This document shows positions 2,830-32,000 of a stretch of 32,000 nucleotides of DNA, piece after piece. The notes under the pieces are model-generated. The model worked only from the letters and a program-made list of their open reading frames with translations. It ran no database searches and was not told where the DNA came from. A program made the translations under genes and the position numbers. Numbering within the stretch: position 1 is the first letter of the stretch; the number at the start of each line of letters is the position of its first letter. The DNA comes from Acaryochloris thomasi RCC1774. Its GTDB lineage: Bacteria > Cyanobacteriota > Cyanobacteriia > Thermosynechococcales > Thermosynechococcaceae. Location: the NCBI RefSeq assembly GCF_003231495.1, contig NZ_PQWO01000012.1:151310-183309 (forward strand), written 5' to 3'.

Positions 2830-5063
2830 GTTTGTGCTGCGTCTCCAAGGTCTGCTGAAACTAAGTTCGGTTGATGATTTACAAGCCTCATACGTCCTTG
2901 AGCATCACGGTGCCAGCCTGTTGCTTCTAGTAACGGGGCTGGTGTCACTGGCCTAGTAGCATATTCCTGTGAAGGATACCCTCGCTGCTGCGTCGTGCGA
3001 AAAGCCGAAAGGTCACGCACATCATTCCATAGCTGTGGATTACTCACTAAATCCTGAGGGCTGGAGGGGACACCTCCCCGACCTGCTAATACAAAGCTAT
3101 TGCCTTGCTTGGCTGCACAACCGATAGCAATCTTCTGACTTGGGTCGCTGACGCCTTCAGGCAAGTTGACAAGAGCTGAGTCTGGGTCAGAGACAAGTGT
3201 GTCGATTTCAATGCCTCCAGCAAGTCCAAATTCAGAGCTAGCATCAATATCATTGGTTCCATTACCTGCAATCGCCTGCCGTTCTGCGAAGCCAAACAAA
3301 CCTTGGGTATTAATAGTAATATTGCCCCCCATCCCCTCAAAAGCATTGGCAACGATATTGCTATCTTGACTCGGACTTGCAAAAACAAGACCTGCATCTA
3401 TTGCGATATTGCCGCCATCACCAGTCCCCCCAGCTTCTGCTGTAATCTGACTGTTGTTACTCAGCAGCAGCAGCCCTGAGACTTGCAGATTGATATTGCC
3501 GCCTCTACCAACTTCTGTCTGTGCATTAAGAAGGCCTTGATCAAGAGTTAAGGTATCCGATGTGATGTTGAGAGTGCCTGCGGCTCCAGATCCTGAACTC
3601 GTAACGACAACTTGCGCACCATCTCTGATCGTTAATTGCGGAGTATTGATACTTAAGACTCCACCAGCACCGGAGCCATCAGTTGCAGCGGATAAGTTAC
3701 TTGGTATTGGAACTGGTGAGCCAATACCAGAAATTTCTATCAGCTCAGAGGCGTTAATGACTATATCGCCTGCCTTTCCCTGGCTAAGAGTGCCAGAAGA
3801 GATAAAACCTCCGTTGCGGATGAACAGCTTCTGAGTATCAATCAGGATATCTCCTCCGTTACCAGTTACTGGTGCATTTATTACCTCCTGTTCATCGATA
3901 CCGACTTGCGAGAACAAAGAACTCGGCACACCATCAATTTCAACTGAGTCAGTTGCGAGAACTTCTATATTGCCGCCATTACCAAAATCGGTAGTAGCAT
4001 TGGAGATCTGTGTATTACTTAGGACAATGTGCCGACCTCTGAGTCGAATCGTCCCACCAGCGCCACTAGCATCGATGGAGGCCAGATCGCCAAACAAAGC
4101 TGGAACCACAGAGGGATCGAGAGGACCCAAACGAATATCTTGAAAGCTTTCAACCAAGCTGTAGTCAAGTGCCCACCCTTGATTGACCTCAGTCAAGCCA
4201 ACAAAGCTATTTCTATCAACACTACCAAGCTCAACCCGTCCTCCTAAAGCAGTAAGATGTCCACCTTCAAACATCACCTCCCTCCCGACAAGAACCAACG
4301 CATTACCTGGCCGTACCTGCAAGCCAACTGGATCCCCAGATGGAGCCAAGCCCAGGGGAGATATGTTAGTAATGGGCATTGCATTAGATTGATTGGTGAT
4401 ACCTCCCGGAGCTTCCCCAAACTGCAAGCCAATGGGAGAATTAACTGTCAATAGCGGAGTTGCTTGCGAGGATGCGGCACTAAACACCGTGCCGTCTGCA
4501 AAGGTTAAATCACTAGCAGTAGTTCCAAGGAACGAACCACCAATATCAAGAATTGCATTTGGGCCAAAAATGATACCGTTTGGATTGATCAAAAAAAGAT
4601 TAGTGGCTCCCCCAACCTGCAAAGTGCCATCGATATTGGAAATAGAGCTACCTGTCACCCGGCTGATTATATTTTCGACAGATGTATTGCCAGGCAGACG
4701 AAAATTTGCAACCTCACCCGTACGAATAGAAAATGCCTCAAAACTATGAAATAGATTGCTGCCGCGCTGAATACCACCCGTAATCTCTACCGACGACCCA
4801 GCGGTGCTGACTCGCGTTGACAGTGTACCGTCTGGCGCAGCTTGCGCAGTTGACGGGCAAGCGCCCAGTAAGAGGTTTCCTCCAATACATATCCCGCAAC
4901 ACAGCCAAGAGTGAATCCACTTATTGGCAACACGAACATTACTTAATAGATACACCTTAGTTTCTGTGAGATATTTCTGACAGCTTCCTGGAAGTATACC
5001 CACATTTGTATTTTTGCCAACATTGAGAACAAGGCAGAATCGCAAAACATTGCAAACTTGCAA
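2823..5063 (-). CDS. Filamentous-hemagglutinin-like exoprotein (TPS / haemagglutination-activity domain followed by beta-helix repeats)
   Basis: 746-aa ORF. Residues ~80-190 (nt ~4494-4826) carry TPS-domain hallmarks: NLFHSFEAF, ISRVTG and INPNGIIFG. The rest is periodic G-G-(N/D)-I type repeats (GNGGNIEV, GNGGDILI, GKAGDIVI, GRGGNINL, GDGGNIAI, GMGGNITI). The C-terminal motif is NSFVLAGRGGVPSSP. Signal-like core WLCCGICIGGNLLLGACPSTAQA. The ATG at 5063 is probably too far upstream; an in-frame GTG at 4955 is an alternative start. Confidence 0.85.
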   Translation of the reverse strand: MQVCNVLRFCLVLNVGKNTNVGILPGSCQKYLTETKVYLLSNVRVANKWIHSWLCCGICIGGNLLLGACPSTAQAAPDGTLSTRVSTAGSSVEITGGIQRGSNLFHSFEAFSIRTGEVANFRLPGNTSVENIISRVTGSSISNIDGTLQVGGATNLFLINPNGIIFGPNAILDIGGSFLGTTASDLTFADGTVFSAASSQATPLLTVNSPIGLQFGEAPGGITNQSNAMPITNISPLGLAPSGDPVGLQVRPGNALVLVGREVMFEGGHLTALGGRVELGSVDRNSFVGLTEVNQGWALDYSLVESFQDIRLGPLDPSVVPALFGDLASIDASGAGGTIRLRGRHIVLSNTQISNATTDFGNGGNIEVLATDSVEIDGVPSSLFSQVGIDEQEVINAPVTGNGGDILIDTQKLFIRNGGFISSGTLSQGKAGDIVINASELIEISGIGSPVPIPSNLSAATDGSGAGGVLSINTPQLTIRDGAQVVVTSSGSGAAGTLNITSDTLTLDQGLLNAQTEVGRGGNINLQVSGLLLLSNNSQITAEAGGTGDGGNIAIDAGLVFASPSQDSNIVANAFEGMGGNITINTQGLFGFAERQAIAGNGTNDIDASSEFGLAGGIEIDTLVSDPDSALVNLPEGVSDPSQKIAIGCAAKQGNSFVLAGRGGVPSSPQDLVSNPQLWNDVRDLSAFRTTQQRGYPSQEYATRPVTPAPLLEATGWHRDAQGRMRLVNHQPNLVSADLGDAAQTC

Positions 5064-5896: not shown

Positions 5897-7153
5897 GTGA
5901 CCGTTTCTCCCGTCTCCCCTGCCGCAACATCAAATCCAACTCAACTTCCTGATGCGCTGGGTCGATTTGGTGTATTCGGAGGCAAGTATGTTCCTGAAAC
6001 CTTGATGCCTGCCCTCAGTGAGCTAGAAGAGGCGTTTGAGAAATATCGAGATGATTCTGGCTTTCAAGAGCAGCTCAACGGTCTCCTGAGAGATTATGTC
6101 GGACGGGCCAATCCGCTGTACTTCGCAGAACGTCTGACGGCTCACTATGCACGTCCCGACGGCACAGGACCACAAATTTATCTCAAGCGTGAGGATCTCA
6201 ATCATACGGGTGCTCACAAGATCAACAACGCTCTGGCGCAGGTATTGCTAGCGCAACGAATGGGCAAGCAGCGCATTATTGCAGAAACAGGTGCAGGCCA
6301 ACATGGCGTCGCCACCGCCACTGTCTGTGCTCGATTTGGCTTACAGTGTGTCATCTACATGGGTGTTCAAGACATGGAGCGTCAATCGCTCAACGTGTTT
6401 CGGATGCGTTTGCTAGGAGCAAAGGTCCAACCAGTAGAGGCCGGCACCGGAACGCTCAAGGATGCCACGTCAGAGGCAATTCGTGACTGGGTGACTAACG
6501 TTGAGACCACACACTACATTTTGGGTTCCGTTGCGGGTCCACACCCCTATCCGATGATGGTCCGCGATTTTCATGCGGTCATTGGTCGAGAAACACGGCA
6601 GCAGTGCCAAGAGCACTGGGGTGGATTGCCCGATATCTTGCTGGCCTGCGTCGGTGGTGGCTCCAATGCAATGGGTCTGTTCCATGAGTTTGTTAAGGAC
6701 TCTTCAATCCGCATCATTGGCGTCGAGGCTGCCGGTGAAGGTATTGGCAGCGGACATCATGCCGCGACTCTCACTCAGGGACAGATTGGTGTTCTGCATG
6801 GTGCAATGAGCTATTTACTGCAGGATGATGACGGTCAAGTAGAGGAAGCGCATTCGATTAGTGCCGGGCTAGATTATCCGGGTGTCGGACCGGAGCACAG
6901 CTTTTTGAAAGATAGCGGTCGTGCAGAGTATTTCAGCGTCACCGATGCTGAGGCGATTGCAGCCTTTCAGCGCCTCTCTGAACTAGAGGGGATTATTCCG
7001 GCCCTAGAGACCAGTCATGCGATCGCATATCTTGAAACCCTCTGTCCACAGCTAACAGGCAGCCCGCGCATCGTGATCAACTGTTCAGGCCGGGGGGATA
7101 AAGATGTACAAACCGTGGCCAAATTTCTGGAACATCTCCAGAGCGACACCTAA
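5897..7153 (+). CDS. trpB: Tryptophan synthase beta subunit
   Basis: 418-aa ORF with a GTG start. PLP-lysine motif HTGAHKINN, glycine loop [10 protein letters not shown], and full-length TrpB-like sequence ([16 protein letters not shown], [12 protein letters not shown]). Confidence 0.97.
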
Positions 7154-7172
7154 GATTTAGGCATCACTCGTT

Positions 7173-8909
7173 TTGCAACGCTTGCAGCAGCCTAATCGAT
7201 ACCATCTATTACTTCTCTTGGCATCGATTGTGTTAGGGCTGGGGCTGCGGCTGATAAACCTAACCGATAAATGCCTCTGGACTGATGAGCTGGCAACCTT
7301 AGTTTTCAGCCTCGGGCACAGCTTTTTAAGTATTCCTCTCGATCAGATCATCACATCTGAGACCCTTCTGCAGCCGTTGGTCCCAGATCCTCAGCTCAAC
7401 CTCGGAGGCGTCGTTGAGCATTTACTAGGGGAAAGCAACCATCCGCCCCTCTATTTTTGGCTCACGCATCTGTGGCTGCAGATGTTCCCGACCCCAGACG
7501 GCCTCGTTTCTTTGTGGGGAGCGCGATCTCTCTCGGCCCTATTCGGCACTGCGGCGATTCCGGCCATCTTTTGCCTAGGCTATCTTGCCTTCCGCTCGCT
7601 CTGGATTGCCCAGTTAGCAGCGCTATTAATGGCGACCTCTCCCCTCGCCATTTATCTGGCTCAAGAAGCGCGTCATTACACGCTCCCGATTTTGTGGGTG
7701 ATCGCTTCCCTCGCCTGTTTGATAATCGCCACCCGTGCCCTAGCCGAACGCCGTCCCTTACCCTTGTGGGTGATGCTGGTCTGGATTGTAGTCAATGGAT
7801 TGGGAACAGCATCACACTATTTCTTTAGCCTGACCCTCTGCGCTGAGGGGATTGTTTTGCTCGGTTTAGCAGGTCGACAGATCCAGCAGCAGGCCCTCTC
7901 TACAGACAAAACTCTCAAAGCAAACCGTTCTTTCTGGCAAAAGCATCCACTTCGATCAACGTGGCTGCGAATTGGAGTAGTGGGCGCAGGGACGTTGGCA
8001 AGCTTGGTGGTCTGGCTTCCTTTTCTGCAGGGCGTTCAGGATAGCGAGATCACGCAGTGGATCCATCGGGGCAATCGCGTCGGACTAGAATGGCTCGATC
8101 CGGTTTTGCAAATCCTGGCGGGGGCGAGCACGATGCTCTACATGCTGCCCATCCAGGCGAGCAATGCGCCCCTCAGCGTGGTGTCGTTTGTGGCGCTGGT
8201 GTTGCTAGCGATTTGGACGGGCTTCAAAATTAATCAGGGACTGCGGATTTCTAGCGCCAATGGCTATGCGGTCTGGATTCTAGGTGGGTTTGTTGTCGGT
8301 GCGATCGCAACTTTTTTAATCATCACCTATGGCTTCGAGCGGGAGGTGACCAGTGCCCCGCGCTATCATTTCGTCTTCTTCCCTGCGGTCATACTGCTGA
8401 TTGCCGCTGCATTGGTCCAGCAGTGGTCGCCTTCTCGAGCTGTTTTGAAACAGACGGCCATTATTATTGTCAGCCTCAGTCTACTGGGCGCAATCACCGT
8501 CGTCAGCAACCTCGGCTATCAAAAAACCCATCGTCCCGACATCGTCGCTCAAGCCATTCGAGAAGGCCCCTCCCAACAAAGCCTGATTGTCATCGCCCAT
8601 TCAACCCACGGCCAAACAGGACGAATGATGGCCCTTGCCTGGGACTTTAAACACCGTCCCCTCCAGCCTGCGCCACTTTTTTTAATGGCCCACATCATCG
8701 ACAAGCCAGAATCAGTCCTCATTCCCCTTCAGCATTCGCTGGAACAGATATCAACCCCCATCACACTTTGGCTGCTTGAGTTCAAGGGAGTTCCCGAAGA
8801 CGCACTGCAGGCAACGCTCGCTGCCCATCACTGCCAGCCTCAGCCTCAAGTCAAATCAGCCACAGACGGCTATCGATATCGCATGCATAGATGTAGAGGT
8901 GATCAGTGA
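7173..8909 (+). CDS. Polytopic membrane glycosyltransferase, ArnT/PMT-like (GT39/GT83-type)
   Basis: 578-aa ORF with many hydrophobic helices. The N-terminal region LGLRLINLTDKCLWTDELATLVFSLG...HPPLYFWLTH is typical of cyanobacterial dolichyl-phosphate-mannose-type or ArnT-like transferases. Only near-cognate starts are available (TTG at 7173 or 7182). Confidence 0.7.
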   Translation: MQRLQQPNRYHLLLLLASIVLGLGLRLINLTDKCLWTDELATLVFSLGHSFLSIPLDQIITSETLLQPLVPDPQLNLGGVVEHLLGESNHPPLYFWLTHLWLQMFPTPDGLVSLWGARSLSALFGTAAIPAIFCLGYLAFRSLWIAQLAALLMATSPLAIYLAQEARHYTLPILWVIASLACLIIATRALAERRPLPLWVMLVWIVVNGLGTASHYFFSLTLCAEGIVLLGLAGRQIQQQALSTDKTLKANRSFWQKHPLRSTWLRIGVVGAGTLASLVVWLPFLQGVQDSEITQWIHRGNRVGLEWLDPVLQILAGASTMLYMLPIQASNAPLSVVSFVALVLLAIWTGFKINQGLRISSANGYAVWILGGFVVGAIATFLIITYGFEREVTSAPRYHFVFFPAVILLIAAALVQQWSPSRAVLKQTAIIIVSLSLLGAITVVSNLGYQKTHRPDIVAQAIREGPSQQSLIVIAHSTHGQTGRMMALAWDFKHRPLQPAPLFLMAHIIDKPESVLIPLQHSLEQISTPITLWLLEFKGVPEDALQATLAAHHCQPQPQVKSATDGYRYRMHRCRGDQ

Positions 8910-16812: not shown

Positions 16813-18384
16813 ATGAAAGACCTGAAAGATAATAGCATTGTGGATCTTAAGAACGATCCAGAGACAATGCTGGAGAAAATGATTAACCGCAACGTTAAAT
16901 TCCAGGTTGTGGAGTATATTTCAGCCGCAGCGGCTGTCGGTGGCACGATCGCAACTGGTCTCGGTCAGAGTGCGGTGTTTGCAGCAGCTCCTCTCACCTT
17001 TTCGGTGTGTCTTAACCTGCTAAATCGGCGAAACCTCAATCAGCTTACGCGTCAGCGGATGTTTGCAGACACCACGGAGATTCAGAACCTCTTGACCAGC
17101 GATATTCAAGAGTTGAGGGCTGGTTTCCAAGAGCTGCCTGAGGTGCGCGAGGCGATTGATCTGACCGAGATGCAGGCCGCGCTTGCGGCGGTGTCTGAGA
17201 ATGTCTCAGCCCTAGAAGAGAAAGCGCTCGCCCCAGTCAGTGAAACGGGCGAACCACAAACGGCCTTGGCTGCTGATATGGATCAGCTCCGAGCCCACCA
17301 GATTGAGTTAGCTGAAGCCATCGAATCGGTGAAGCAGCAGCTTGCCGATGCGCCTGAAGCAACGGTTGTCGGACCCGATATGAGTGGCGAACTGGCGACA
17401 CTACGGGATGCGATCGCAAACCTAGAGCAGCGCGACAACGGTGCAGAATCCGTACCCAACTTAGAACCACTACGGGCTGAGCTGCAGGCGATGCTCACTC
17501 CCGTACAAACACAGGTTTCGGCTTTAAATGATCGTCTCCACAACCAGCCCGTCGAAGGGGATGCTGAAGGCAGCAGCTTTAACGCTGGATCTTCAGGCCA
17601 GGTGCTAGAGCTACAGGGGCACTTAGAAGGTCTCAATACCAAGGTAGACAACGCTTTTGTTAATCTTTCCGATGAGCTAGCTGCTGTTCGGGGCACCGTG
17701 GAAGGCACTCAAGGGCAGCTTGAAGGTGTCCAGCAGCGGATTACCGATGAAGTGGCTGGGGTACGCGGTGCCGTTGATAACACTCAAAATCAAGTTAACG
17801 ACATTCAGGGACGTATAGAGGGCGTCGGTGGCACCGTCGATAACACCCAAAATCAAATCAATGATATTCAAGGACGCTTAGAAGGCGTCAGTGGTGCTGT
17901 CGATAATACCCAGAATCAAATCAACGAGATTCAGGGACGTCTAGAGGGCGTCGGTGGCGCTGTTGAAAACACCCAGAATCAAATCAATGATATTCAGGGA
18001 CGCCTAGAGGGAGTACAGCAGGGCACAGGCGAACTGCCGACCGAGCAGATTGAAGCTCAAATGCAGACAGCCTTGAACCCGATTAAAGAGCATCTTAATA
18101 ACTTAGATGGCAAGATCGAAGCGATACCCTCTCTTGATCCGGCGGCGATTCAGGGCCAAGGAGAACAGCTGCAGGCGCTGCAGGGGCAGCTTCACAGCAT
18201 GGGCACACGCATCGATAACGTCTCATCTCAGGTTTCCACTGAGATGGCTAATCTGCCGAACCTCGTGGATCAAAAAATCAAAGAAAGCTCAGACTCACGT
18301 CCGCCTTCACCTCCACCTGTCGAGGAGAAGAAGGCGAGCAAACTTTTTGAACTGGATGCGTTGCTGGCAGATCTGGAATCCTAG
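16813..18384 (+). CDS. Membrane-anchored coiled-coil protein with 21-aa tandem repeats (hypothetical)
   Basis: 523 aa. Hydrophobic segment at residues ~33-70 (VEYISAAAAVGGTIATGLGQSAVFAAAPLTFSVCLNLL). The remainder is Q/E/L/A-rich with heptad character. Pro-rich PPSPPPVEEKK lies near the C-terminus. Confidence 0.8.
   Translation: MKDLKDNSIVDLKNDPETMLEKMINRNVKFQVVEYISAAAAVGGTIATGLGQSAVFAAAPLTFSVCLNLLNRRNLNQLTRQRMFADTTEIQNLLTSDIQELRAGFQELPEVREAIDLTEMQAALAAVSENVSALEEKALAPVSETGEPQTALAADMDQLRAHQIELAEAIESVKQQLADAPEATVVGPDMSGELATLRDAIANLEQRDNGAESVPNLEPLRAELQAMLTPVQTQVSALNDRLHNQPVEGDAEGSSFNAGSSGQVLELQGHLEGLNTKVDNAFVNLSDELAAVRGTVEGTQGQLEGVQQRITDEVAGVRGAVDNTQNQVNDIQGRIEGVGGTVDNTQNQINDIQGRLEGVSGAVDNTQNQINEIQGRLEGVGGAVENTQNQINDIQGRLEGVQQGTGELPTEQIEAQMQTALNPIKEHLNNLDGKIEAIPSLDPAAIQGQGEQLQALQGQLHSMGTRIDNVSSQVSTEMANLPNLVDQKIKESSDSRPPSPPPVEEKKASKLFELDALLADLES
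17773..18024 (+). repeat. Four tandem 63-bp (21-codon) repeats inside the coiled-coil gene
   Basis: Units start at 17773, 17836, 17899 and 17962. They encode VDNTQNQVNDIQGRIEGVGGT, VDNTQNQINDIQGRLEGVSGA, VDNTQNQINEIQGRLEGVGGA and VENTQNQINDIQGRLEGVQQG. Degenerate units precede them from ~17686. Confidence 0.9.
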
Positions 18385-19986: not shown

Positions 19987-21312
19987 ATGAAAAAAGTCTT
20001 TGTCCTAGATACCAATGTGCTGTTGCACGACCCCGCCGCAATGCATCAGTTTGAGGACAACGACGTGGTGCTGCCGATGACGATTATCGAAGAGCTTGAT
20101 CGCTTCAAAAAACAGCCAGAAGAAACCGGACGCAATGCTCGTCAGGTGTCGCGCGAGCTAGACGGTCTGCGCCAGCAGGGAAATCTATTTGAGGGCATCG
20201 TCCTCGAAGGCGGCGGCAATCTTAGGGTGGCACTCTGCAACCGAGAAACCTTACAGGAACTGCCTCCAGAGCTAGAGCGCGACAGAGGGGATAACTCTAT
20301 TTTGGCAGTGGCGCTAGAGCTGCAGCGCCAGTGTAATTGTCCGTTAGTCTTGGTAAGTAAGGATACGAATCTGCGTCTGAAGGCGGATGCCCTCAGTGTG
20401 GCTGCCGAAGATTACGAAACGGACAAGGTAAATGTTGGCGATCTCTACACCGGCATCTCTGAAGTGATCGTGGATGCCGAGTCCATCAACAATTTGTTTA
20501 AGCAGGGTGGCGTGGATTTAGACGGTCCCTTCTTACCCAACCAGAGCCTAACGCTGGTGGACTCCGTCAATCCAGCTCACACAGCCTTGGCCGTGGTCGA
20601 CGGCCATAGCGGTCAGGTGCAGCCCCTCGCTAAAATTCCCCACGCCGGCATCTCACAAGTGATTCCACGCAACCGAGAGCAGCGCTTTGCGATTGAGCTA
20701 CTGCTGCGCGATTCGATTTCTTTGCTCACGCTGGTAGGCAAGGCAGGCACCGGGAAGACCTTACTTGCGATCGCAGCCGGTCTGCAGCAGGTGGCCGATG
20801 AACAGCGCTACAGTCGCCTATTAATTGCTCGCCCCAATATTCCCATGGGGCGTGACTTAGGCTATCTGCCCGGAGATATTAAAGAGAAGCTAACCCCGTG
20901 GATGCAGCCCCTCTATGACAACTTTGATTTGATCTTTGGCACCCAAGACACCACTGGCCAACCCAGCCACTGGCGGCGTGGCCACGAAGAACTCATGGAG
21001 CAGGGTTTACTGCAAATTGAACCGCTGACCTACATTCGTGGCCGCACGATTCCCAAACAGTTCCTAATCGTAGATGAAGCTCAAAATCTAACCCCCCATG
21101 AAGTCAAAACAATTCTGACCCGTGCGGGCGAGGGAACAAAGGTTGTGCTGACCGGCGACCCTGAACAGATTGACAACCCCTATGTCGATGCAGCCAGCAA
21201 TGGTCTCACCTACGTCGTCGAAAGATTTAAAAAGGAGCCACTCGCGGGGCATGTGACGCTGCATCATGGCGAGCGCTCAATGTTAGCAGAACGAGCCGCC
21301 GCGCTCCTGTAG
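19987..21312 (+). CDS. PhoH-like ATPase with N-terminal PIN domain (PhoH2/YlaK type)
   Basis: 441 aa. PIN-like start [13 protein letters not shown]...TIIEELD, P-loop GKAGTGKT, Walker B IVDEAQN, and GDPEQID. Confidence 0.9.
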
Positions 21313-24212: not shown

Positions 24213-24619
24213 GCACAAAAAGGAAGGATCAGTGACTTCATTATAGAGTGGGCCTTTGACTTTCAGGGAGCCTAAGGCAAATCCCCACGATTTCACCTTT
24301 CGAGCATCTCGCTCATCCTCTGCTAACCCAATATCTGACAATTACAAGATAAGAACACGAACATCATCGGCCGTATATACGACAAGCTTATTTTGATTAA
24401 GGAAAAATTAATTTTCCCGAAATAAAAAACTTCAAAACCTTAGGTCGTTACGACTGTTATAAAAGTTATTTGTTTTGCCAGATATAAATATTGCGCTCTC
24501 CAAGATTTAAAGACAGAATGAGGATGCGAGATGCTCTATTTTTAATGAATAATAAGAAAGCATTCGGACATGCGGTGGGGCAACGTTCAGATCAAGTTTT
24601 AGAACAGGGGAACCCAATA

Positions 24620-25261
24620 ATGAGAATAATCAGCCCAGGGCTATTATTGGCTCTAGCAAGCGTGCTGGCCGTGGCCACATCCGTCTCTGCAGAAGACAAT
24701 AAGGCCGCTTCATTAGCCCCCAATGGTTCCATTCAGCCTGCAGGGGGGCAGCTTGGTGGCGCTCCCCTTCCTCCGCCGATTAATCATCGTGCATTTCAAA
24801 AGCCAGAACTTTTAGACAACTATGGGTTGATCAAGGGCATTCAAAATGACAAGGTCTCTGTTCGGCTTTTAAATGGAGATATCAAGACGTATCTTCTCGC
24901 TTCAAACACTGTAGGCGCTAAGCTAAGGCGCGGCGGTCTCGTTGGATTTAGGACAAACATCAAGGGAGAAATTACCAGGCTTTCACCCCCTCAAGTTCGC
25001 AAGGTTTATACCGGCACTTTAATCATTGTCGACGGTCAGAAGATCGGCATGGTGACGCCTCAGGGTGACCGCTTCATCACCACATTAGCCAAGAATAAGA
25101 TTGCTCGGATGGGTTTAGCTCCCGGTCAACCCATTAAAATCACCCAATATCGAGGAACGTGGGCCACGAAGGTGTGTCAGCCAGGAGCACTCAATGATGA
25201 TGATTCTTTCCCGATCCTGGCGGAGCAAGGGCGTGGCACTATTATTCCTCAAGAACAGTAG
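24620..25261 (+). CDS. Secreted protein of unknown function, paralog family P (C-terminal ~128-aa module)
   Basis: The ORF track starts at TTG 24491. The ATG at 24620 gives a clean signal peptide, MRIISPGLLLALASVLAVATSVSA, preceded by GGGGA. The C-terminal module (nt ~24809-25192) is ~70% identical by eye to that of the next gene. Confidence 0.75.
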   Translation: MRIISPGLLLALASVLAVATSVSAEDNKAASLAPNGSIQPAGGQLGGAPLPPPINHRAFQKPELLDNYGLIKGIQNDKVSVRLLNGDIKTYLLASNTVGAKLRRGGLVGFRTNIKGEITRLSPPQVRKVYTGTLIIVDGQKIGMVTPQGDRFITTLAKNKIARMGLAPGQPIKITQYRGTWATKVCQPGALNDDDSFPILAEQGRGTIIPQEQ

Positions 25262-25803: not shown

Positions 25804-27270
25804 ATGAACAAAAGAATTTACTATACAGCTCTCACACTTGCGATCACGGGAATCTGTACAGCTGCAACAGCTGTCGCCGCCGCAGACGAAAGTATTACCA
25901 CGACTTCTCCATCTCCTATAGATTCTTACGCCGATCAGAATCTTCAGGGAGAGATACTTGTAGCCTCTGCTCCTCTATCAGATGCTGAGACAACAGTTAC
26001 AAGCTACTCTAAGCAGCCTAAGCATTTAGAGGGACCTAATATTCCTCCCCGAGTCTTAGCTTCTCCTGATCTCCAACCTCTCGCAAGACTAGATATTGAA
26101 AAGACGCCTATTACAAATGGAGTAGTAGAAGTTTCTACGTCAAACATTGACTTCTCAGCAACGCTAACCTTCAAACCCTCTGCACAGACAATCGCTGAGA
26201 TCCAGGCACTAGAATCAAAGACATCTCACAGCTTTGACAATAGTGCATCTTTACTGGCTCTGGCTTCAGAAACTGTTGAACCAGCCAACGCAGGCATTAG
26301 GTCACAGGTAGTTGAAACACCAGAGCCTGTTGTACAGAACATCAACTTCCCAACAGCTCCAACATTCACTCCTTCCGCACAGACAATCGCTGAAATTCAA
26401 GCTCCAGAGTTAAAGACATCTCACAGCTTTGATAGCAGTGCATCTTTACTGGCTTTGGCCTCAGAAATCGTTGAAGAAACTAATACTGAGTCCGAGGTGC
26501 TGAAAGATGAAAAAACGGAAGCTGTTGTCTCAGACATTAACTTACCAATAGTTCCAACTTCCTCCGCCATGGCACAAGCCATTCCTGAATTTCAAGCACC
26601 CGCAGTTGAAGCTGACCAATCTGTTGAACATGGTGCTGCATTACTGAGACCTTTAGCACCAGGCCTTACCGCAGAACCTAAACTAGAAAATTCAGCCACC
26701 ATTCAAAGGAATAGTGTTGCAGATGCAGTAGTAGCGCCAGCGCCAAAACAAACACCTACGCTACAAAGCAATCTTGATAGGGCCCCCATAACTCCAAAGT
26801 CATCAGAAATTTTGGATAACTATGGATTAGTCAACTCTATCAAAGGCAATAAAGTCTCGGTTCGTCTCTTAAACGGAAAGAATAAAACCTACTTGCTAGC
26901 TTCTAATTCCGCAGGGAGTCAAATCAGGCGTGGCGGCTTAATGGGTTTTAACACGGATCGCCGAGGTAGAATTACGCGTCTCGCGCCTCCTAAGATCAAA
27001 AAGATTTACCAAGGCACTCTAGTTATCGTGGAAGGGACAAAAATTGGCATGGTGACACCTGAAGGAGAACGTTTTATCACAACGCTTTCGAAGAGAAAGA
27101 TTGCTCACATGGGCCTAGCGCCTGGACAGCCGATCAAGATCACTCAATACAGTGGAACTTGGGCCACAAAAGTTTGCCGTCCGGGAGTATTAAGCGATCG
27201 CCAGATTTCATCTGATGCGATGCAGAGGCAAAGAAATTTCTTGAGGGGTGAAACCTCACCAAAATCTTAA
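25804..27270 (+). CDS. Secreted repeat protein of unknown function, paralog family P
   Basis: 488 aa. Signal peptide MNKRIYYTALTLAITGICTAATAVAA. Three 65-aa repeats in the S/T/P/A/E-rich middle. The C-terminal module (nt ~26809-27192), ILDNYGLVNSIKGNKVSVRLLNG...ITQYSGTWATKVCRPG, is shared with the 24620 gene. Confidence 0.8.
   Translation: MNKRIYYTALTLAITGICTAATAVAAADESITTTSPSPIDSYADQNLQGEILVASAPLSDAETTVTSYSKQPKHLEGPNIPPRVLASPDLQPLARLDIEKTPITNGVVEVSTSNIDFSATLTFKPSAQTIAEIQALESKTSHSFDNSASLLALASETVEPANAGIRSQVVETPEPVVQNINFPTAPTFTPSAQTIAEIQAPELKTSHSFDSSASLLALASEIVEETNTESEVLKDEKTEAVVSDINLPIVPTSSAMAQAIPEFQAPAVEADQSVEHGAALLRPLAPGLTAEPKLENSATIQRNSVADAVVAPAPKQTPTLQSNLDRAPITPKSSEILDNYGLVNSIKGNKVSVRLLNGKNKTYLLASNSAGSQIRRGGLMGFNTDRRGRITRLAPPKIKKIYQGTLVIVEGTKIGMVTPEGERFITTLSKRKIAHMGLAPGQPIKITQYSGTWATKVCRPGVLSDRQISSDAMQRQRNFLRGETSPKS
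26143..26676 (+). repeat. Three tandem 195-bp (65-codon) repeats inside the 25804 gene
   Basis: Units begin at residues N114, N179 and D244. The first is NIDFSATLTFKPSAQTIAEIQALESKTSHSFDNSASLLALASETVE. The second is NINFPTAPTFTPSAQTIAEIQAPELKTSHSFDSSASLLALASEIVE. The third is degenerate: DINLPIVPTSSAMAQAIPEFQAPAVEADQSVEHGAALLRPLA. Confidence 0.75.
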
Positions 27271-27739: not shown

Positions 27740-28141
27740 TTACTTCCCCTCGTATTCAAAGGATTTAATAACGGTAAAATCGTAGGTTACTTTTCCCTTT
27801 GGCAAATCATACTGAAAATCTGAATAGATTTCATTGTAAGCCGCAGCGTACTGTGGCAAAAACAAGTAGTGATAGAATCCTTGGGGAGGGAAGAAACTAG
27901 AGCCAAATCCATTGAGGCCAAACCCAAACCCTCCGGCAGCAAATACATTTCCGGAAAATCCACCCGCTGTAAATGCATTACCGGAAAATCCACCTACAGA
28001 ATTTGCAGGTAGGAAAAATGCCTCGGCAGGCGTTGCCTGAGGAGAAGTAGACTGACCAAAGATAATTTGCGCGTTGGCCCCATTTGTAAACGATGCCAAG
28101 GCCACCGATAGAGTTGTTAACGCAAGTACAGGAACTTTCAT
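27740..28141 (-). CDS. Secreted Gly/Phe-repeat protein (hypothetical)
   Basis: 133 aa. Signal peptide MKVPVLALTTLSVALASFTNGANA. Decapeptide repeats GGFSGNAFTA / GGFSGNVFAA / GGFGFGLNGF (nt ~27902-27994). Aromatic-rich C-terminal part ending VTYDFTVIKSFEYEGK. Confidence 0.65.
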   Translation of the reverse strand: MKVPVLALTTLSVALASFTNGANAQIIFGQSTSPQATPAEAFFLPANSVGGFSGNAFTAGGFSGNVFAAGGFGFGLNGFGSSFFPPQGFYHYLFLPQYAAAYNEIYSDFQYDLPKGKVTYDFTVIKSFEYEGK

Positions 28142-28385: not shown

Positions 28386-28832
28386 CTATCTGCCTCGCGG
28401 TCCTACCTGTGGCTCTGGACTACTCCGTCGAGGTCCGCGATCTCCACTGGCACCCGTTGTGACATTGGTTGTATGCACAAAATCAGCATAATCAAAAGAT
28501 TCACTGAATTCGTAGACGGTGGTTGTTAGCCTTTCTCCACGCTCTCTCGTTATAGAGGTATTTATAGTGCCGTTATCAGAAACGGTTGTAGTTGTGGCAC
28601 CATTGGCCCGATTAGAGGTATGACTGGAGTCACGTTGAGAATCAGTGGTGATAGAGAAGCCATTTTCACTCGTTTGTTCCCTTGTCACAACACGGTTGTT
28701 ACGCTCTGCATGCCCCTGTGGGCTGACAACGAAGTTCATCACAGTTGTGCCAGAAGCATTCTGTGCCAGGCTTGGCAATACAAATGTCAAGAGCCAAAAA
28801 GGTGAAAGCACAAGAACATATTTGGGTTTCAT
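28386..28832 (-). CDS. Secreted Thr/Ser/Asn-rich protein, distant member of the GFDF family
   Basis: The ATG at 28832 gives the signal peptide MKPKYVLVLSPFWLLTFVLPSLA; the ORF track starts 18 codons earlier. The segment RERGERLTTTVYEFSESFDYADFVHTTNVTTG aligns by eye with REQGTVLKNTTVRVQESYEFTGFQESHRVTAG of the 29852 gene. Confidence 0.6.
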   Translation of the reverse strand: MKPKYVLVLSPFWLLTFVLPSLAQNASGTTVMNFVVSPQGHAERNNRVVTREQTSENGFSITTDSQRDSSHTSNRANGATTTTVSDNGTINTSITRERGERLTTTVYEFSESFDYADFVHTTNVTTGASGDRGPRRSSPEPQVGPRGR

Positions 28833-28949
28833 ACTAACAATTCTCGCTTTTCGACAGGGTAGGCAGCTACCATTTATAACCATCATCTCTATTCAAGAGT
28901 AAAGAAACATCCCTAACGACAGCTCAACTTAAGCCAAGGATGATTCAGA

Positions 28950-29783
28950 CTACTGCCGTGCTTGAACACTTGATTCCTGAGTGCTAGCCGTTGCGGGTCG
29001 CTGCAGCTGTGCCGGCTGAACTGGTCGCTGCGGCTGAGGTACGGCCTGCTGTTGAACAGGTTGAATGGGCTGGCCTGACTGCTGCTGTACAAAATTTTGA
29101 TTCGTAGCAGACGGCTCATTGATAAGCTGCTCAGCTTGCTGTCGGGAGACGGGCTGGACTTGTTGCTGGCCCGCTTGCTGCTGTCGAGAAACAGGTTGCG
29201 CTTGCTGTTGACCCAGTTGTGGCTGACGGCCTCGGGCATTACGATTATTCTGCTGTGGCGCAGCACCAAATGGGCTGGCACCAGGCTGCGGAACGGTGAC
29301 AGTTGGGCACTCAAGGCCAGCAAGCTGATTAAGATCTTCGTAGCTAATCTTGATTCCAGATTTAATCATTTTGGAATAGTTACTAATGACTAGCAAACAA
29401 GTTTCCAAAGACGCTCTGGCTAATTGTGTCTTTGCATATGCTCGGCAGGTATCTACACCAAATGACTTGGTATAGGTAAATGAGCCACCAATAGAACCTG
29501 TATCGAAGGGACCGATTCCATTACCAAAAGCAGATAGCGCAATACCAGAGCTGGAGCAGTCAGCGATACCATTACCAACAACACTTCTGCCTAGAGGGAA
29601 TGAATTCACTTGTGTATTAACAAGCGATCCCTGCTGGTTTAGATCAACGACAGGATTCGCCGTTGAGTTTGCATTGTTGGGAGCATCAATATTGTTTGTG
29701 GTAGCCTGTGCAGACACTTTCCCTGCAGTACACAATAGCAAGCCAACAACTGAAGCACCCGCCATTAAATGACGATAATTCAT
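28950..29783 (-). CDS. Secreted 4-Cys protein with Q/P-rich C-terminal tail (hypothetical)
   Basis: 277 aa. Signal peptide MNYRHLMAGASVVGLLLCTAGKVSA. The mature N-domain is G/S/N-rich with Cys76, Cys113, Cys129 and Cys159. The tail from residue ~165 (nt 28953-29291) is about one third Gln (36 of ~113 by my count). Confidence 0.7.
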   Translation of the reverse strand: MNYRHLMAGASVVGLLLCTAGKVSAQATTNNIDAPNNANSTANPVVDLNQQGSLVNTQVNSFPLGRSVVGNGIADCSSSGIALSAFGNGIGPFDTGSIGGSFTYTKSFGVDTCRAYAKTQLARASLETCLLVISNYSKMIKSGIKISYEDLNQLAGLECPTVTVPQPGASPFGAAPQQNNRNARGRQPQLGQQQAQPVSRQQQAGQQQVQPVSRQQAEQLINEPSATNQNFVQQQSGQPIQPVQQQAVPQPQRPVQPAQLQRPATASTQESSVQARQ

Positions 29784-29851
29784 TTCATGTTCTCCTAGGC
29801 CAACGATAGGGGCATTAATAAATTTTTGCCCCCCAAATTTCTAAGTGCGGA

Positions 29852-30259
29852 TTAAAAGTCAAACCCGGCTGTAACTCTGTGACTTTCCTGGAAACCAGTA
29901 AACTCATAAGACTCCTGTACACGAACCGTTGTGTTCTTAAGTACAGTGCCTTGCTCCCTGGAATAACTTCTGGATGTAACGTCAAAGTAGGTGTCTTCTT
30001 GGACGTTGCGGCCATCTTCGACGTAGGTAATTGAAGTTTTACCTCGCTCACGCTTTACCGCAAAGGCATCAGCTTCGCGCTCGCCATTATAAACTTCTCT
30101 AACATTGAGCCTAGTTTCTGCCTTGCCATTTGTGATGACCCGCCGACTTTGGCTATTCCCAACATAAGCACTGCCTGCTATTGCTGGCAGTGAAGCTACA
30201 AGCCAAGAGAAACAGATAAGAGGGAGGAATCTACGGCATTTCATTTTAAACACCATCAA
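29852..30259 (-). CDS. Secreted small beta-rich protein, GFDF family (divergent copy)
   Basis: 135 aa; the likely start is the MKCRRF ATG at 30244. Signal peptide ...WLVASLPAIAGSAYVGNS. The C-terminus ESYEFTGFQESHRVTAGFDF matches the two copies downstream in coordinates. Confidence 0.7.
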   Translation of the reverse strand: MMVFKMKCRRFLPLICFSWLVASLPAIAGSAYVGNSQSRRVITNGKAETRLNVREVYNGEREADAFAVKRERGKTSITYVEDGRNVQEDTYFDVTSRSYSREQGTVLKNTTVRVQESYEFTGFQESHRVTAGFDF

Positions 30260-30389
30260 GTTATCAAAACCATCGGGGTGTCACTAAAATGCAATCTAGT
30301 TTGCAAGAATTTACCCCGTACGACTTGTAGGTTAAGCCTCACTGCTCTCAAAGCAAAAAGGCTTAACCCATGAGAGAGAAATACGAAAA

Positions 30390-30815
30390 CTAGAAGTCGA
30401 AACCAGAAGTCACGCGGTGAGTCTTGTCGAAGCCAGAGAAGTCGTAGGACTCATGGACTGCAACATCAGTTGTATTTTTGAAACGACCGTGCTCACTAGA
30501 CCAGCTGCTAACACTAATATCAGCGACATCAACTTCTGAGAAATTAGTCTCACGCCAAGAGCCAGCAACATCACCCTTCTCAGTGTAATCAGTTGTTGTT
30601 ACGCTCCACTCATTCTTCACCGCATCGGAGCCGGCTGAACGAGTCCCTTTATAGACCTCATGCACCTTAACCTTAGTATCTGAATGGCCGTTGTAAGTAT
30701 TCTTTAGGTTGAAGCTGTTCTCAACGTAGGAACTTCCAGCCAAGGAAGGAAGAGCTGCAAAACCTACGAGAATTGCAGAAAGAGGAAGAACTCTTTGAAG
30801 TTTCATAATATTCAC
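30390..30815 (-). CDS. Secreted small beta-rich protein, GFDF family (cassette copy 1)
   Basis: 141 aa. Signal peptide MNIMKLQRVLPLSAILVGFAALPSLAG. About 82% identical (25 mismatches of 141 by my count) to the 31043 copy. Ends FSGFDKTHRVTSGFDF. Confidence 0.8.
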   Translation of the reverse strand: MNIMKLQRVLPLSAILVGFAALPSLAGSSYVENSFNLKNTYNGHSDTKVKVHEVYKGTRSAGSDAVKNEWSVTTTDYTEKGDVAGSWRETNFSEVDVADISVSSWSSEHGRFKNTTDVAVHESYDFSGFDKTHRVTSGFDF

Positions 30816-31042
30816 TACTGAATAACTGCTTTAGAAAATAGAGAAGGGCACGTCGCCTTCACATACACTGATAAACTCAACAGATCTTGACCTGAGCAAT
30901 ATAAGGAATCGCTTTAAATCGGGATTAACCTCAATAGGTAGTTGCAGAAACACTACAGAATCAAGACAATGAACGTCTTAAACTTTTGCTACCTGTTCAA
31001 AACTATCCCGGTATTGCTCAGGCGATATGACTAAAGAATTGC

Positions 31043-31468
31043 TTAGAAGTCGAAGCCAGAAGTCACGCGGTGAGTCTTGTCGAAGCCAGAGAATTGGTAG
31101 GACTCATCCACTGCAACTTTTGTTGAATTAATGAATGCACCGCTTTCCTCGGACCAGCTGCTAACGCTAATATCAGCGACATCAACTTCTGAGAAATTAG
31201 TCTCACGCCAAGAGCCAGCAACATCGCCCTTCTCGTTGTAATCAGTTTTTGTAATACTGTATTCATCCTTGGTCGCATCAGAACCAGCAGAACGAGTACC
31301 CAGATAAAGCTGATTGACATCAACATCAGTTTTAGAATAGCCGTTGTAAGTATTCTTTAGATTGAAGCTGTTCTCAACGTAGGAACTTCCAGCCAAAGAA
31401 GGAAGAGCTGCGAAGCCAACGAGAATTGCAGAAAGAGGAAGAATTCTTTGAATTTTCATGATACTCAC
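31043..31468 (-). CDS. Secreted small beta-rich protein, GFDF family (cassette copy 2)
   Basis: 141 aa. Signal peptide MSIMKIQRILPLSAILVGFAALPSLAG. Same architecture and identical C-terminal 16 aa as copy 1. Confidence 0.8.
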   Translation of the reverse strand: MSIMKIQRILPLSAILVGFAALPSLAGSSYVENSFNLKNTYNGYSKTDVDVNQLYLGTRSAGSDATKDEYSITKTDYNEKGDVAGSWRETNFSEVDVADISVSSWSEESGAFINSTKVAVDESYQFSGFDKTHRVTSGFDF

Positions 31469-31698
31469 TACTAAATGATTGCTAGAGAAAATAGAGCAGG
31501 AAGAAATCTTCCCCTCGAAAATATGGCTAAATCTACAGATTTCAACCTGAGCAATACAAGGAATCGCTTTAAATCAGGATTAGCCTCAATAGGTAGGTAC
31601 AAATAGCACTACAGAGTCAAGGCAATGAGCGCCTTAAACTTTCGCTATCAGTTCAAAACTATCCCGGTATTGTTCAGGCGATATGACTAAAGAATCGC

Positions 31699-31828
31699 TT
31701 AGAAGTCGAAGCCAGAAGTCACGCGGTGAGTCTTGTCGAAGCCAGAGAATTGGTAGGACTCATCCACTGCAACTGTTGTTGAATTATCGAATGAACCGCT
31801 CTCTTTAGACCAGCTGCTAACGCTAATA
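31699..31828 (-). pseudogene. 3' fragment of a third GFDF-family cassette copy
   Basis: Encodes only ...ISVSSWSKESGSFDNSTTVAVDESYQFSGFDKTHRVTSGFDF plus a stop. Homology to copy 2 ends abruptly after 31828. An in-frame TAG lies just upstream, and there is no start codon or signal peptide. Confidence 0.75.
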
Positions 31829-31833
31829 AGTAG

Positions 31834-32000
31834 CTAGGCGGAATTAAACTTAAGACGGTGTACCTTGTATTTGCCCTTTTCACCTCGAGCGGTCATCCCT
31901 TCGATGACGGCAATCGCTAAATCGTACTCATTGCTAAACATCTGCCCCGCTATTTCGTGAGCCTTAAGTTGCCGCCACTGGGTCTCAATGTCATTCAACT
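31834..32000 (-). CDS. 3' end of an unidentified gene running off the window
   Basis: Open frame to the window edge. It encodes ...LNDIETQWRQLKAHEIAGQMFSNEYDLAIAVIEGMTARGEKGKYKVHRLKFNSA with a TAG stop at 31834-31836. It is absent from the ORF track because it is under 60 codons. Family not recognised. Confidence 0.45.
   Translation of the reverse strand, partial: LNDIETQWRQLKAHEIAGQMFSNEYDLAIAVIEGMTARGEKGKYKVHRLKFNSA

Follow-up and report, generated by a model that had tools for sequence, protein, structure and literature searches.

Comparison with described surface systems

The CT pilus of Microcystis aeruginosa is formed by the pilin MrpC (BH695_0841; PDB 9BTQ), a 12.3-kDa protein with a signal peptide and a structure made mainly of long beta-hairpins. 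Its 'dark' family is restricted to cyanobacteria, a pilin-like paralog is encoded beside the pilin gene, and AlphaFold predicts the pilin structure wrongly (PMC12397347). In this study, we analyzed a stretch of 32,000 nucleotides (nt) from Acaryochloris thomasi RCC1774 (contig NZ_PQWO01000012.1, positions 151,310 to 183,309), hereafter the window, which carries a module of genes for small proteins predicted to be exported. The module comprises A in one to three copies, B, C, D and E, and in some genomes F as one or two divergent copies; A and B share a C-terminal ending in GFDF, and D is their diverged relative. The tandem A copies followed by the single-copy paralogs B and D resemble the organization of pilus and curli loci (pap/fim, csgBA). 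The GFDF proteins and D, which are predicted to be Sec-exported all-beta proteins of ~12-13 kDa, may be the structural subunits of an envelope-associated or extracellular polymer (fiber, tubule or lattice), with A as the major subunit and B and D as minor ones. We favor this reading tentatively and regard it as somewhat short of probable. It is possible, although doubtful, that the module A(n)-B-C-D-E(+F) represents a hitherto undescribed class of cyanobacterial surface appendage or lattice, built from strand-paired ~12-kDa all-beta subunits with its own accessory proteins C, E and F replacing usher, secretin and ATPase; it would then be a second 'dark' pilus family, independent of the CT pilus.

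The module shares several features with the CT pilus: a ~12-kDa subunit with a signal peptide and long antiparallel beta-hairpins (predicted in the case of A), a dark cyanobacteria-only family that AlphaFold predicts poorly, and a pilin gene located beside a pilin-like paralog and other exported beta-rich proteins. Neither has a recognized assembly machinery. However, the profiles of A, C, D and E had no significant sequence match in the PDB (nothing, or noise at E>1) when submitted against all PDB chain sequences of a 2026 copy, in which 9BTQ was assumed to be included. The CT pilin folds into two long beta-hairpins and a C-terminal helix-turn-helix; the low-confidence models of A (predicted local distance difference test, pLDDT, 46.6/55.8) were all-beta and had no such helices, and 9BTQ was not among the top 50 Foldseek matches of the A model, which is itself of low confidence. 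The CT cluster also encodes an O-GlcNAc transferase and an FkbM methyltransferase, whereas genes for a glycosyltransferase or a methyltransferase are absent from the window module and its flanks. The CT pilus ranges over Chroococcales and Nostocales, whereas the module belongs to the Acaryochloris/Thermosynechococcaceae clade. The two systems therefore appear analogous, not homologous, with a resemblance limited to function and architecture.

Curli (csgBAC/csgDEFG) resemble the module in that the genes of the major secreted subunit and of its minor paralog are adjacent, several small accessory proteins exported by Sec and divergent partner genes are also encoded, and an ATPase is not. However, neither curlin repeats nor CsgG, CsgE or CsgF homologs were found by Pfam in A to F, A is not a Q/N-rich imperfect-repeat protein, and no recognizable outer-membrane channel is encoded in the module. 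Chaperone-usher pilins (Saf, Fim, Pap) are also small, T/S/N-rich, all-beta exported subunits, with a C-terminal strand of alternating aromatic or hydrophobic residues and an N-terminal strand of alternating hydrophobics, both conserved, and with a major subunit and minor paralogs within one operon. In contrast to these systems, the module had no PapD-like chaperone or usher Pfam family in the six loci compared (window, L001, L002, L009, L014 and L015), and of the pilin domains (Fimbrial, Saf-Nte_pilin, SCPU and similar) only Saf-Nte_pilin was matched, in 1 of 33 A-family members and below the cutoff.

The GFDF genes and their diverged paralog

Three intact minus-strand genes and one remnant encode the common C-terminal ending ESY[EDQ]F[ST]GF[QD][EK][ST]HRVT[AS]GFDF, and a six-frame regular-expression scan found the GFDF motif four times in the window, at these four sites only. 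An earlier note on this DNA had reported the shared ending for the genes at 29852, 30390 and 31043 and for a fragment at 31699, and both translation and scan confirmed it. The A2 gene (31043..31459, minus strand) starts with ATG (MKIQ..) and encodes 138 amino acids (aa), the listed open reading frame (ORF) at 31043-31468 giving 141 aa. Its signal peptide ends in ..ALPSLA and is followed by GSSYVENS, which leaves a mature part of ~115 aa. The A1 gene (30390..30806, minus strand) encodes 138 aa from the likely real ATG (MKLQ..; gene call P0001), or 141 aa from GTG in the ORF 30390-30815, and mature A1 has ~115 aa, 12.8 kDa and an isoelectric point (pI) of 5.2. The B gene (29852..30259, minus strand; 135 aa) encodes a distinct GFDF subtype (MKCRRF..; ..ESYEFTGFQESHRVTAGFDF). 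A1 and A2 are 82% identical, while B is 44% identical to A1 and 42% to A2. A1 and A2 lie in a tandem repeat unit of ~655 bp that includes the intergenic spacer. B-type orthologs hold the equivalent position, as the last GFDF gene directly before C, in the syntenic metagenome-assembled genome (MAG) L001 and in L002, L005 and L006; B is a separate orthologous group. The ratios of nonsynonymous to synonymous substitution rates (dN/dS) against L001 were 0.14 for A2 and 0.15 for B. Judged from these sequences, the likeness of the GFDF genes is paralogy, not chance.

The A remnant (31699..31822, minus strand) is a further A-type gene copy that retains the last 40 codons and the stop codon; the translation of 31699-31833 reads LLISVSSWSKESGSFDNSTTVAVDESYQFSGFDKTHRVTSGFDF*. 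In DNA, it was 92% identical to the corresponding part of A2 and the spacer downstream of A2, and 13 nt differences in 132 nt were counted between remnant and A2. The remnant is truncated by the end of an IS630-family insertion sequence (31823..32000, minus strand), identified by tblastn from the transposase C-terminus ORF 31834-31998, which matched 33 plasmid records of cyanobacteria, including one with the annotation 'IS630 family transposase'. Homology to the A genes starts only at ~31822, beside the IS630 end. The insertion took away the 5' two-thirds of the remnant gene, and the remaining element lies beyond the window end.

The D gene (28386..28832, minus strand; ORF 28386-28886) encodes 148 aa from a likely start MKPKYVL at 28832. 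The protein carries ..VYEFSESFDYADFVHTTNVTTGASGDRGPRR..PRGR, that is, the core ..ESFDYADF..VTTG followed by a Gly/Pro/Arg tail instead of the C-terminal F-x-F. The D-family and A-family profiles aligned over their full length (hhalign probability 97.9%, E 4.5e-13), and the D-type protein P0033 was matched by the GFDF (A) profile at 6.7e-7 in the exhaustive search. Because of this full-length alignment and the P0033 match, D is, on sequence grounds, a true paralog of the GFDF family, in agreement with the earlier note, which had taken the 28386 gene as a diverged member with a basic Pro/Gly tail. The D orthologs of A-C-D-E modules keep an H-x-V-x-F-x-F ending (HEVNFEF, HTVDFSF, YSINFEY), and in the D subclade of the window the ending changed to ..TTGANGDSGPDY or to a basic Pro/Gly tail. 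A terminator-like hairpin lies at 28385-28366, just past the D stop codon.

The small, polar character proposed for the mature proteins also held: they have 107-125 aa, a grand average of hydropathy (GRAVY) of -0.7 to -1.0, an S+T+N content of 24-37% and an acidic to near-neutral pI of 4.4-6.8, and are Cys-free. The genes do not, however, form a cluster of their own; they are the first genes of a conserved A-B-C-D-E(+/-F) module.

The comparison of A1 with A2 revealed a mosaic. Residues 28-43, 81-105 and 123-141 were near-identical even synonymously (dS ~0.1), whereas residues 44-80 and 106-122 had diverged, with dS of 0.85-1.0; the overall dN/dS was 0.33. This pattern suggests segmental gene conversion between the tandem copies, with two variable blocks maintained. 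Terminator-like hairpins followed by T-runs were observed at 31513-31498 and 30860-30843 (minus strand), equivalent sites in each repeat unit, ~30-45 nt upstream of the start codon of the next A gene. These hairpins could attenuate read-through between the copies or structure the 5' leader. The terminator and promoter counts in the region were not above the shuffled expectation, the regions upstream of the A genes had only a short common box just before the start codon, and an Rfam scan detected no RNA element in the window.

Conservation and predicted fold

Conservation was read from an alignment of 33 diverse A-family members. The A-G pair at the signal-peptide junction, N33, G43, K67 and H133 were invariant, and V31, E108, G128 and V135 were near-invariant (at least 90%). 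The column profile showed about six amphipathic strands of ~10-18 residues each, with Gly-containing turns between them at 42-43, 57-62, 80-90, 109-110 and 128-131 and conserved turn glycines at G43, G57, G81-85, G110 and G128. All large indels fell in the 80-90 loop (residues 79-91 are indel-rich), which holds a Cys pair in some members. In A, conservation was highest in two segments: the strand that opens the mature protein (G-S-S-Y-V-E-N-S-[FY]-x-[LI]) and the closing strands (E-S-Y-x-F-x-G ... H-x-V-x-x-x-F-x-F). The conserved N33, E53, K67/E69, E94/D96, E122 and H133 were located on or beside the hydrophobic faces.

The terminal aromatic residue is not what defines the family. A residue was present at the last consensus position in 25 of the 33 members, F or Y in 24 of these, and distant members end in ..YTN, ..FSN, ..FAN or ..STR. 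Because H133 is invariant, V135 near-invariant and the terminal aromatic not family-wide, the C-terminal signature of the family is, from the alignment, H-x-V and not the terminal Phe.

These endings bear on whether the proteins are outer-membrane proteins with a C-terminal beta-signal, either as an unusually small barrel or, more plausibly, as protomers of a homo- or hetero-oligomeric barrel with hairpins supplied by each of A, B, D and E. We consider this unlikely. The consensus of the beta-signal is polar-x-G-x-x-aromatic-x-aromatic. A, B, most D orthologs and E do end in aromatic-x-aromatic (..GFDF, ..NFEF, ..SFDY), and the R-V-T-S-G-F-D-F of the window copies fits three of the four constrained positions: both aromatics (0 and -2) and the polar residue (-7) agree with it, and the Gly is displaced. 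A signal peptide, amphipathic beta-strands and the C-terminal aromatic-x-aromatic are also found in barrels of the OmpX/Ail/OmpA type, and the low-confidence model of A looks like the long hairpins of oligomeric beta-barrel pores. However, the GFDF proteins have only about six strands against at least eight in such barrels, carry conserved N, E, D, K and H on the faces that would contact lipid, and are much more hydrophilic. Of the 33 members, 8 lack a terminal aromatic at the last consensus position, and the window D has its basic Pro/Gly tail. No outer-membrane protein family of Pfam or NCBIfam was matched by any of the 33 members, even at E<=10 for Pfam. A monomeric outer-membrane barrel is unlikely for A because of the few strands, the conserved charges on the putative lipid face and the non-universal terminal aromatic; the earlier doubt about a classical eight-stranded barrel was therefore supported.

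The earlier note had also proposed AlphaFold modeling as a check. The monomer models of A showed all-beta hairpins and no helix beyond the signal peptide, at low confidence: AlphaFold2 gave a pLDDT of 46.6 with 14 sequences and 55.8 with 33 sequences. The models consisted of one or two giant hairpins with no globular core, ignored the conserved NG and G turns, and reached a pLDDT of ~80 only at residues 70-100. From these models, we accepted only the predicted beta3-beta4 hairpin (residues 70-100). The Foldseek PDB matches (lysenin, aerolysin and anthrax-PA pores and phage tail knobs; template-modeling (TM) scores 0.13-0.40) were rejected as homology, as they reflect long-hairpin geometry only; with respect to an outer-membrane barrel, too, these scores come from a model of too low confidence to interpret.

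The polar residues within the strands suit a different explanation, namely soluble monomers, located in the periplasm or secreted, that fold as beta-sandwiches or small beta-barrels and contain a conserved internal site of polar residues; the module would then encode a set of envelope proteins that interact. The candidate roles would be metal or ligand binding, a lectin-like activity or an autocatalytic intramolecular cross-link (e.g., a Lys-Asn isopeptide). Its probability seems to us rather low, although it deserves consideration: N33, K67 and H133 are invariant and E108 near-invariant, conservation is also common at E53, E69, E94, D96 and E122, many of all these positions share a face with the hydrophobic residues, the GRAVY of ~-0.8 and acidic pI are as expected of soluble proteins, and an assembly machinery is not recognizable in the module. 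On the other hand, strands of 13-18 residues are long for a globular domain of 115 aa, AlphaFold gave no compact fold with either the 14- or the 33-sequence alignment, no known binding or enzyme family was matched, and a tandem-amplified A accompanied by paralogs of its own, B and D, is a pattern more usual for structural subunits.

A recurrent module and its possible function as a polymer

On the minus strand of the window, the module runs in the order A remnant-A2-A1-B-C-D-E, with F1 and F2 divergent on the plus strand, and extends to 24491. The A(n)-B-C-D-E order with an adjacent F was recovered in L001, in L002 (GCA_020357715) and in a Thermosynechococcaceae MAG (L006). In L005, the order A-A-B-C-D-E is followed by the contig end, and a Limnothrix MAG (L007) has a reduced form; F adjoins the module in L001, L002, L006 and L007. 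A second copy of the core A-C-D-E module occurs elsewhere in the L006 genome (L009, L010), Acaryochloris sp. CCMEE 5410 (L014) carries two tandem copies of the whole A-C-D-E module, and A-C-D-E is also present in Altericista sp. CCNU0014 (L015). The same gene order was found in at least nine loci from different genera and in two chromosomal contexts. By inspection, a signal peptide of n-h-c layout with an AxA-like site was recognized in each of the six protein types, in agreement with the earlier claim of a secreted family. The proteins have no further hydrophobic segment and no lipobox conserved across orthologs. All module genes are under purifying selection, with dN/dS of 0.08-0.28 between the window and L001.

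In several genomes, the locus is placed between argB/trmD and prfC (RF3). No plasmid relatives of the locus were found, tblastn against 50,697 phage genomes returned none, and IMG/VR viral contigs held no relative for the A, distant-A or C profiles. Because of the argB/trmD-prfC synteny and the missing plasmid, phage and viral-contig relatives, the locus is, as far as comparative genomics indicates, a vertically inherited chromosomal locus and not a mobile island.

The gene content, paralogy and conservation pattern were observed directly, and the remaining steps of the following mechanism are inferred. Each protein would cross the inner membrane via Sec and be cleaved at the conserved A-G junction. 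The conserved N-terminal and C-terminal strands would form the subunit-subunit interface by beta-strand pairing, either edge to edge or through donor-strand-like exchange, while the loop of residues 79-91 and the two blocks that vary between A1 and A2 would be exposed to solvent. A would be the major subunit, amplified in tandem and partly homogenized by gene conversion, and the single-copy B and D would be minor subunits acting as initiator, adaptor or terminator. C, with a disulfide-bonded domain and a Q/P-rich tail, would serve together with E and F in assembly, anchoring or capping.

We favored a self-assembling structural role because of the operon logic, in which an amplified major subunit is joined by the single-copy paralogs B and D and by small exported accessory proteins. 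Additionally, the conserved termini and the variable center with indels and occasional Cys pairs are typical of polymerizing subunits, and the unusually long strands with no compact predicted fold point in the same direction. The signal peptides on all six types, the recurrent gene order and the purifying selection on every gene support a polymer as well, and the Microcystis CT pilus provides a precedent. Several points weigh against a polymer. No outer-membrane channel, usher, secretin or ATPase is recognizable in the module, so that the route across the outer membrane is unexplained, and this is its main weakness. The AlphaFold2 models of A are of low confidence. The conserved, buried-looking N33, E53, K67, E69, E94, D96, E122 and H133 would equally suit a ligand, metal or catalytic site of a soluble protein. 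Finally, the family is narrow (30 representatives), and a niche non-structural role is possible.

If the products do form a surface polymer, the module would be a pilus- or fiber-type system with no homology to known pilins or assembly machinery. Acaryochloris and its relatives are epiphytes and biofilm dwellers, and structures for adhesion or matrix formation would thus be ecologically relevant. The module occurs in the culturable strains Acaryochloris marina MBIC11017, CCMEE 5410 and Altericista CCNU0014. Whatever the function, the six unannotated exported protein families form a compact set under purifying selection, a target for structure work that addresses a gap in the cyanobacterial envelope.

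The neighborhood of some modules raises another explanation, in which the GFDF proteins are small secreted pore-forming or antagonistic effectors (a bacteriocin or the payload of a conflict system), for which C, D and E would act as helpers or confer immunity, sometimes under the control of a neighboring STAND NTPase. A STAND-type gene (HTH_VMAP-M9 plus NB-ARC/NACHT) lies directly upstream of or inside A-C-D-E at L009 5515-6987, L010 233-1705 and L015 8289-9782, and it could regulate the module specifically or connect it with conflict systems. The tandem diversification of paralogs would suit effectors, and the best Foldseek matches of the A model were beta-pore-forming toxins. However, these matches are uninterpretable at the confidence of this model: against the lysenin, aerolysin and epsilon-toxin pores, the TM scores were 0.13-0.25 with a root-mean-square deviation of 16-23 Å. 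Toxins of the aerolysin/ETX-MTX2 type are multi-domain proteins of at least ~250 aa with an insertion hairpin, whereas mature A has ~115 aa and no Pfam match. Moreover, the annotated part of the window contains no STAND gene, PADLOC gave no match, the dN/dS values are far below 1, and the stable argB/trmD-prfC synteny across genera, with no plasmid or phage copies, indicates vertical inheritance. A Sec signal alone cannot carry a toxin out of a diderm cell. Overall, effectors appear very improbable.

In the Thermosynechococcaceae MAG, the second module faces a convergent signal peptidase I gene (Peptidase_S26; L009 10236-10826, minus strand). This gene recalls the dedicated SipW of the TasA system; as a neighbor, it was seen at one locus type only and is probably coincidental.

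Relatives in databases and literature

The earlier note had also proposed a HMMER-type search for relatives, and the exhaustive HMMER search returned 30 A-family representatives at E<=1e-3 from 1.84 billion representatives, while a word-indexed search of 5.8 billion clusters returned 13 relatives. The named sources were Acaryochloris thomasi, Thermosynechococcaceae MAGs and a Limnothrix MAG. A distant A branch (..AFAG-TSVTNSY....SHTVSSDSF) was found on short metagenome contigs, and a metagenome scan for distant A-like genes yielded one additional short contig. At L011 600-902 and at L016 360-962 (L016 being marine), ORFs of the GIY-YIG type (..YVYKITN..YYIG.T..L..R...H) come after the distant A-like genes. 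The next product in L016 is a C-like protein, apparently with no signal peptide.

The module proteins had no match in Pfam, NCBIfam, PHROGs or PADLOC. When the 33 A-family members were scanned singly against Pfam at E<=10, only scattered sub-threshold noise appeared: Saf-Nte_pilin in one member and DUF4179 in three. The Saf-Nte_pilin match concerned P0005, scored 21.3 bits against a cutoff of 25, took the signal peptide into the alignment and was found in none of the other 32 members. Against the PDB chain sequences, neither single sequences nor profiles (A, C, D, E and the C-terminal domain of F) reached an E-value below ~1, and literature searches by accession and topic returned no description of these proteins. 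The earlier expectation that no described domain family would match was met in the Pfam, NCBIfam, PHROGs, PADLOC and PDB sequence searches. The family and the module were therefore absent from the searched libraries and literature, and we class them, by exclusion, as of no known kind. This classification follows because the comparisons placed the proteins in none of the kinds considered: outer-membrane proteins, curli, pilins of the chaperone-usher or CT type, or beta-pore-forming toxins.

One homolog, P0008, carries the JGI name 'phage-related tail fiber protein', which could indicate phage-derived, tail-fiber-like proteins, and the GIY-YIG ORFs that follow the distant A-like genes on two short metagenome contigs would fit such an origin. 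However, PHROGs was not matched by any of the proteins, P0008 included, neither IMG/VR (A, distant-A and C profiles) nor the 50,697 phage genomes contained relatives, and the neighbors are housekeeping genes. A phage origin was effectively refuted on these results and is, in our estimate, extremely improbable.

The C, E and F genes

The C gene (28950..29783, minus strand) encodes a predicted exported protein of 277 aa. The alignment of its homologs showed a conserved domain of ~135 aa that contains four invariant Cys and, behind it, a low-complexity tail that is Q/P-rich and variable; the domain probably consists of a Gly-rich beta part and then a helical part. Thirty-six clusters of homologs were found, all 'hypothetical', including ABW29092 and ABW29096 of A. 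marina MBIC11017 and a Petrachloros mirabilis protein. C had a dN/dS of 0.08 (window vs L001) and no match in Pfam or the PDB.

The E gene (27740..28141, minus strand) encodes a predicted exported, aromatic- and Gly-rich protein of 133 aa (23% F/W/Y, 15% Gly) with a conserved PPxGFYHY motif and the C-terminus ..TYDFTVIKSFEY(EGK). In the alignment, E homologs also end in aromatic-x-aromatic (..SFDY, ..NFNYK, ..NFVF, ..SFEYEGK), and the dN/dS was again 0.08 between the window and L001. E was rejected as a paralog of A or D, as hhalign aligned the signal peptides only. A tandem 30-nt repeat in E (27926-27985, minus strand) encodes the Gly/Phe-rich insert GGFSGNAFTAGGFSGNVFAAGGFGFGLNGFG, which occurs in the window and its closest relative L001 only; the E orthologs elsewhere lack it.

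The divergent F1 gene (25804..27270, plus strand) encodes a predicted exported protein of 488 aa. Its long N-terminal part is poorly conserved and contains repeats, while the C-terminal domain of ~140 aa (..YGLV..VSVR..GTLIIVEG..TQYxGTWATKVC) is kept across genomes. At ~26130-26540, two copies of a repeat of at least ~45 aa were observed (..NI[DN]F..TFxPSAQTIAEIQA.E.KTSHSFD.SASLLALASE.VE..). F1 had no Pfam match, and its C-terminal domain matched nothing significant among the PDB sequences, FlgA at E=1.2 being dismissed. Only 10 clusters of F homologs were found, all hypothetical. The second, shorter F paralog, F2 (24491..25261, plus strand; gene call P0086, 213 aa), shares 69% identity with the C-terminal domain of F1; P0086 is encoded on the window's own contig, and its L001 counterpart lies at 6612-7274.

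Other genes of the window

At 223-5063 on the minus strand, the genes for a CHAT-domain/TPR protein (223-2829) and for a protein with a two-partner-secretion (TPS) domain (2823-5063) overlap by 7 nt, and the pair is unrelated to the module. A protein of 523 aa is encoded at 16813-18384 (plus strand), with Pfam matches only to many weak coiled-coil families, and a PIN-PhoH fusion ATPase at 19987-21312 (plus strand). The remaining genes of the window are housekeeping genes: glyQ, SSB, an aminotransferase, EPSP synthase and RF3.

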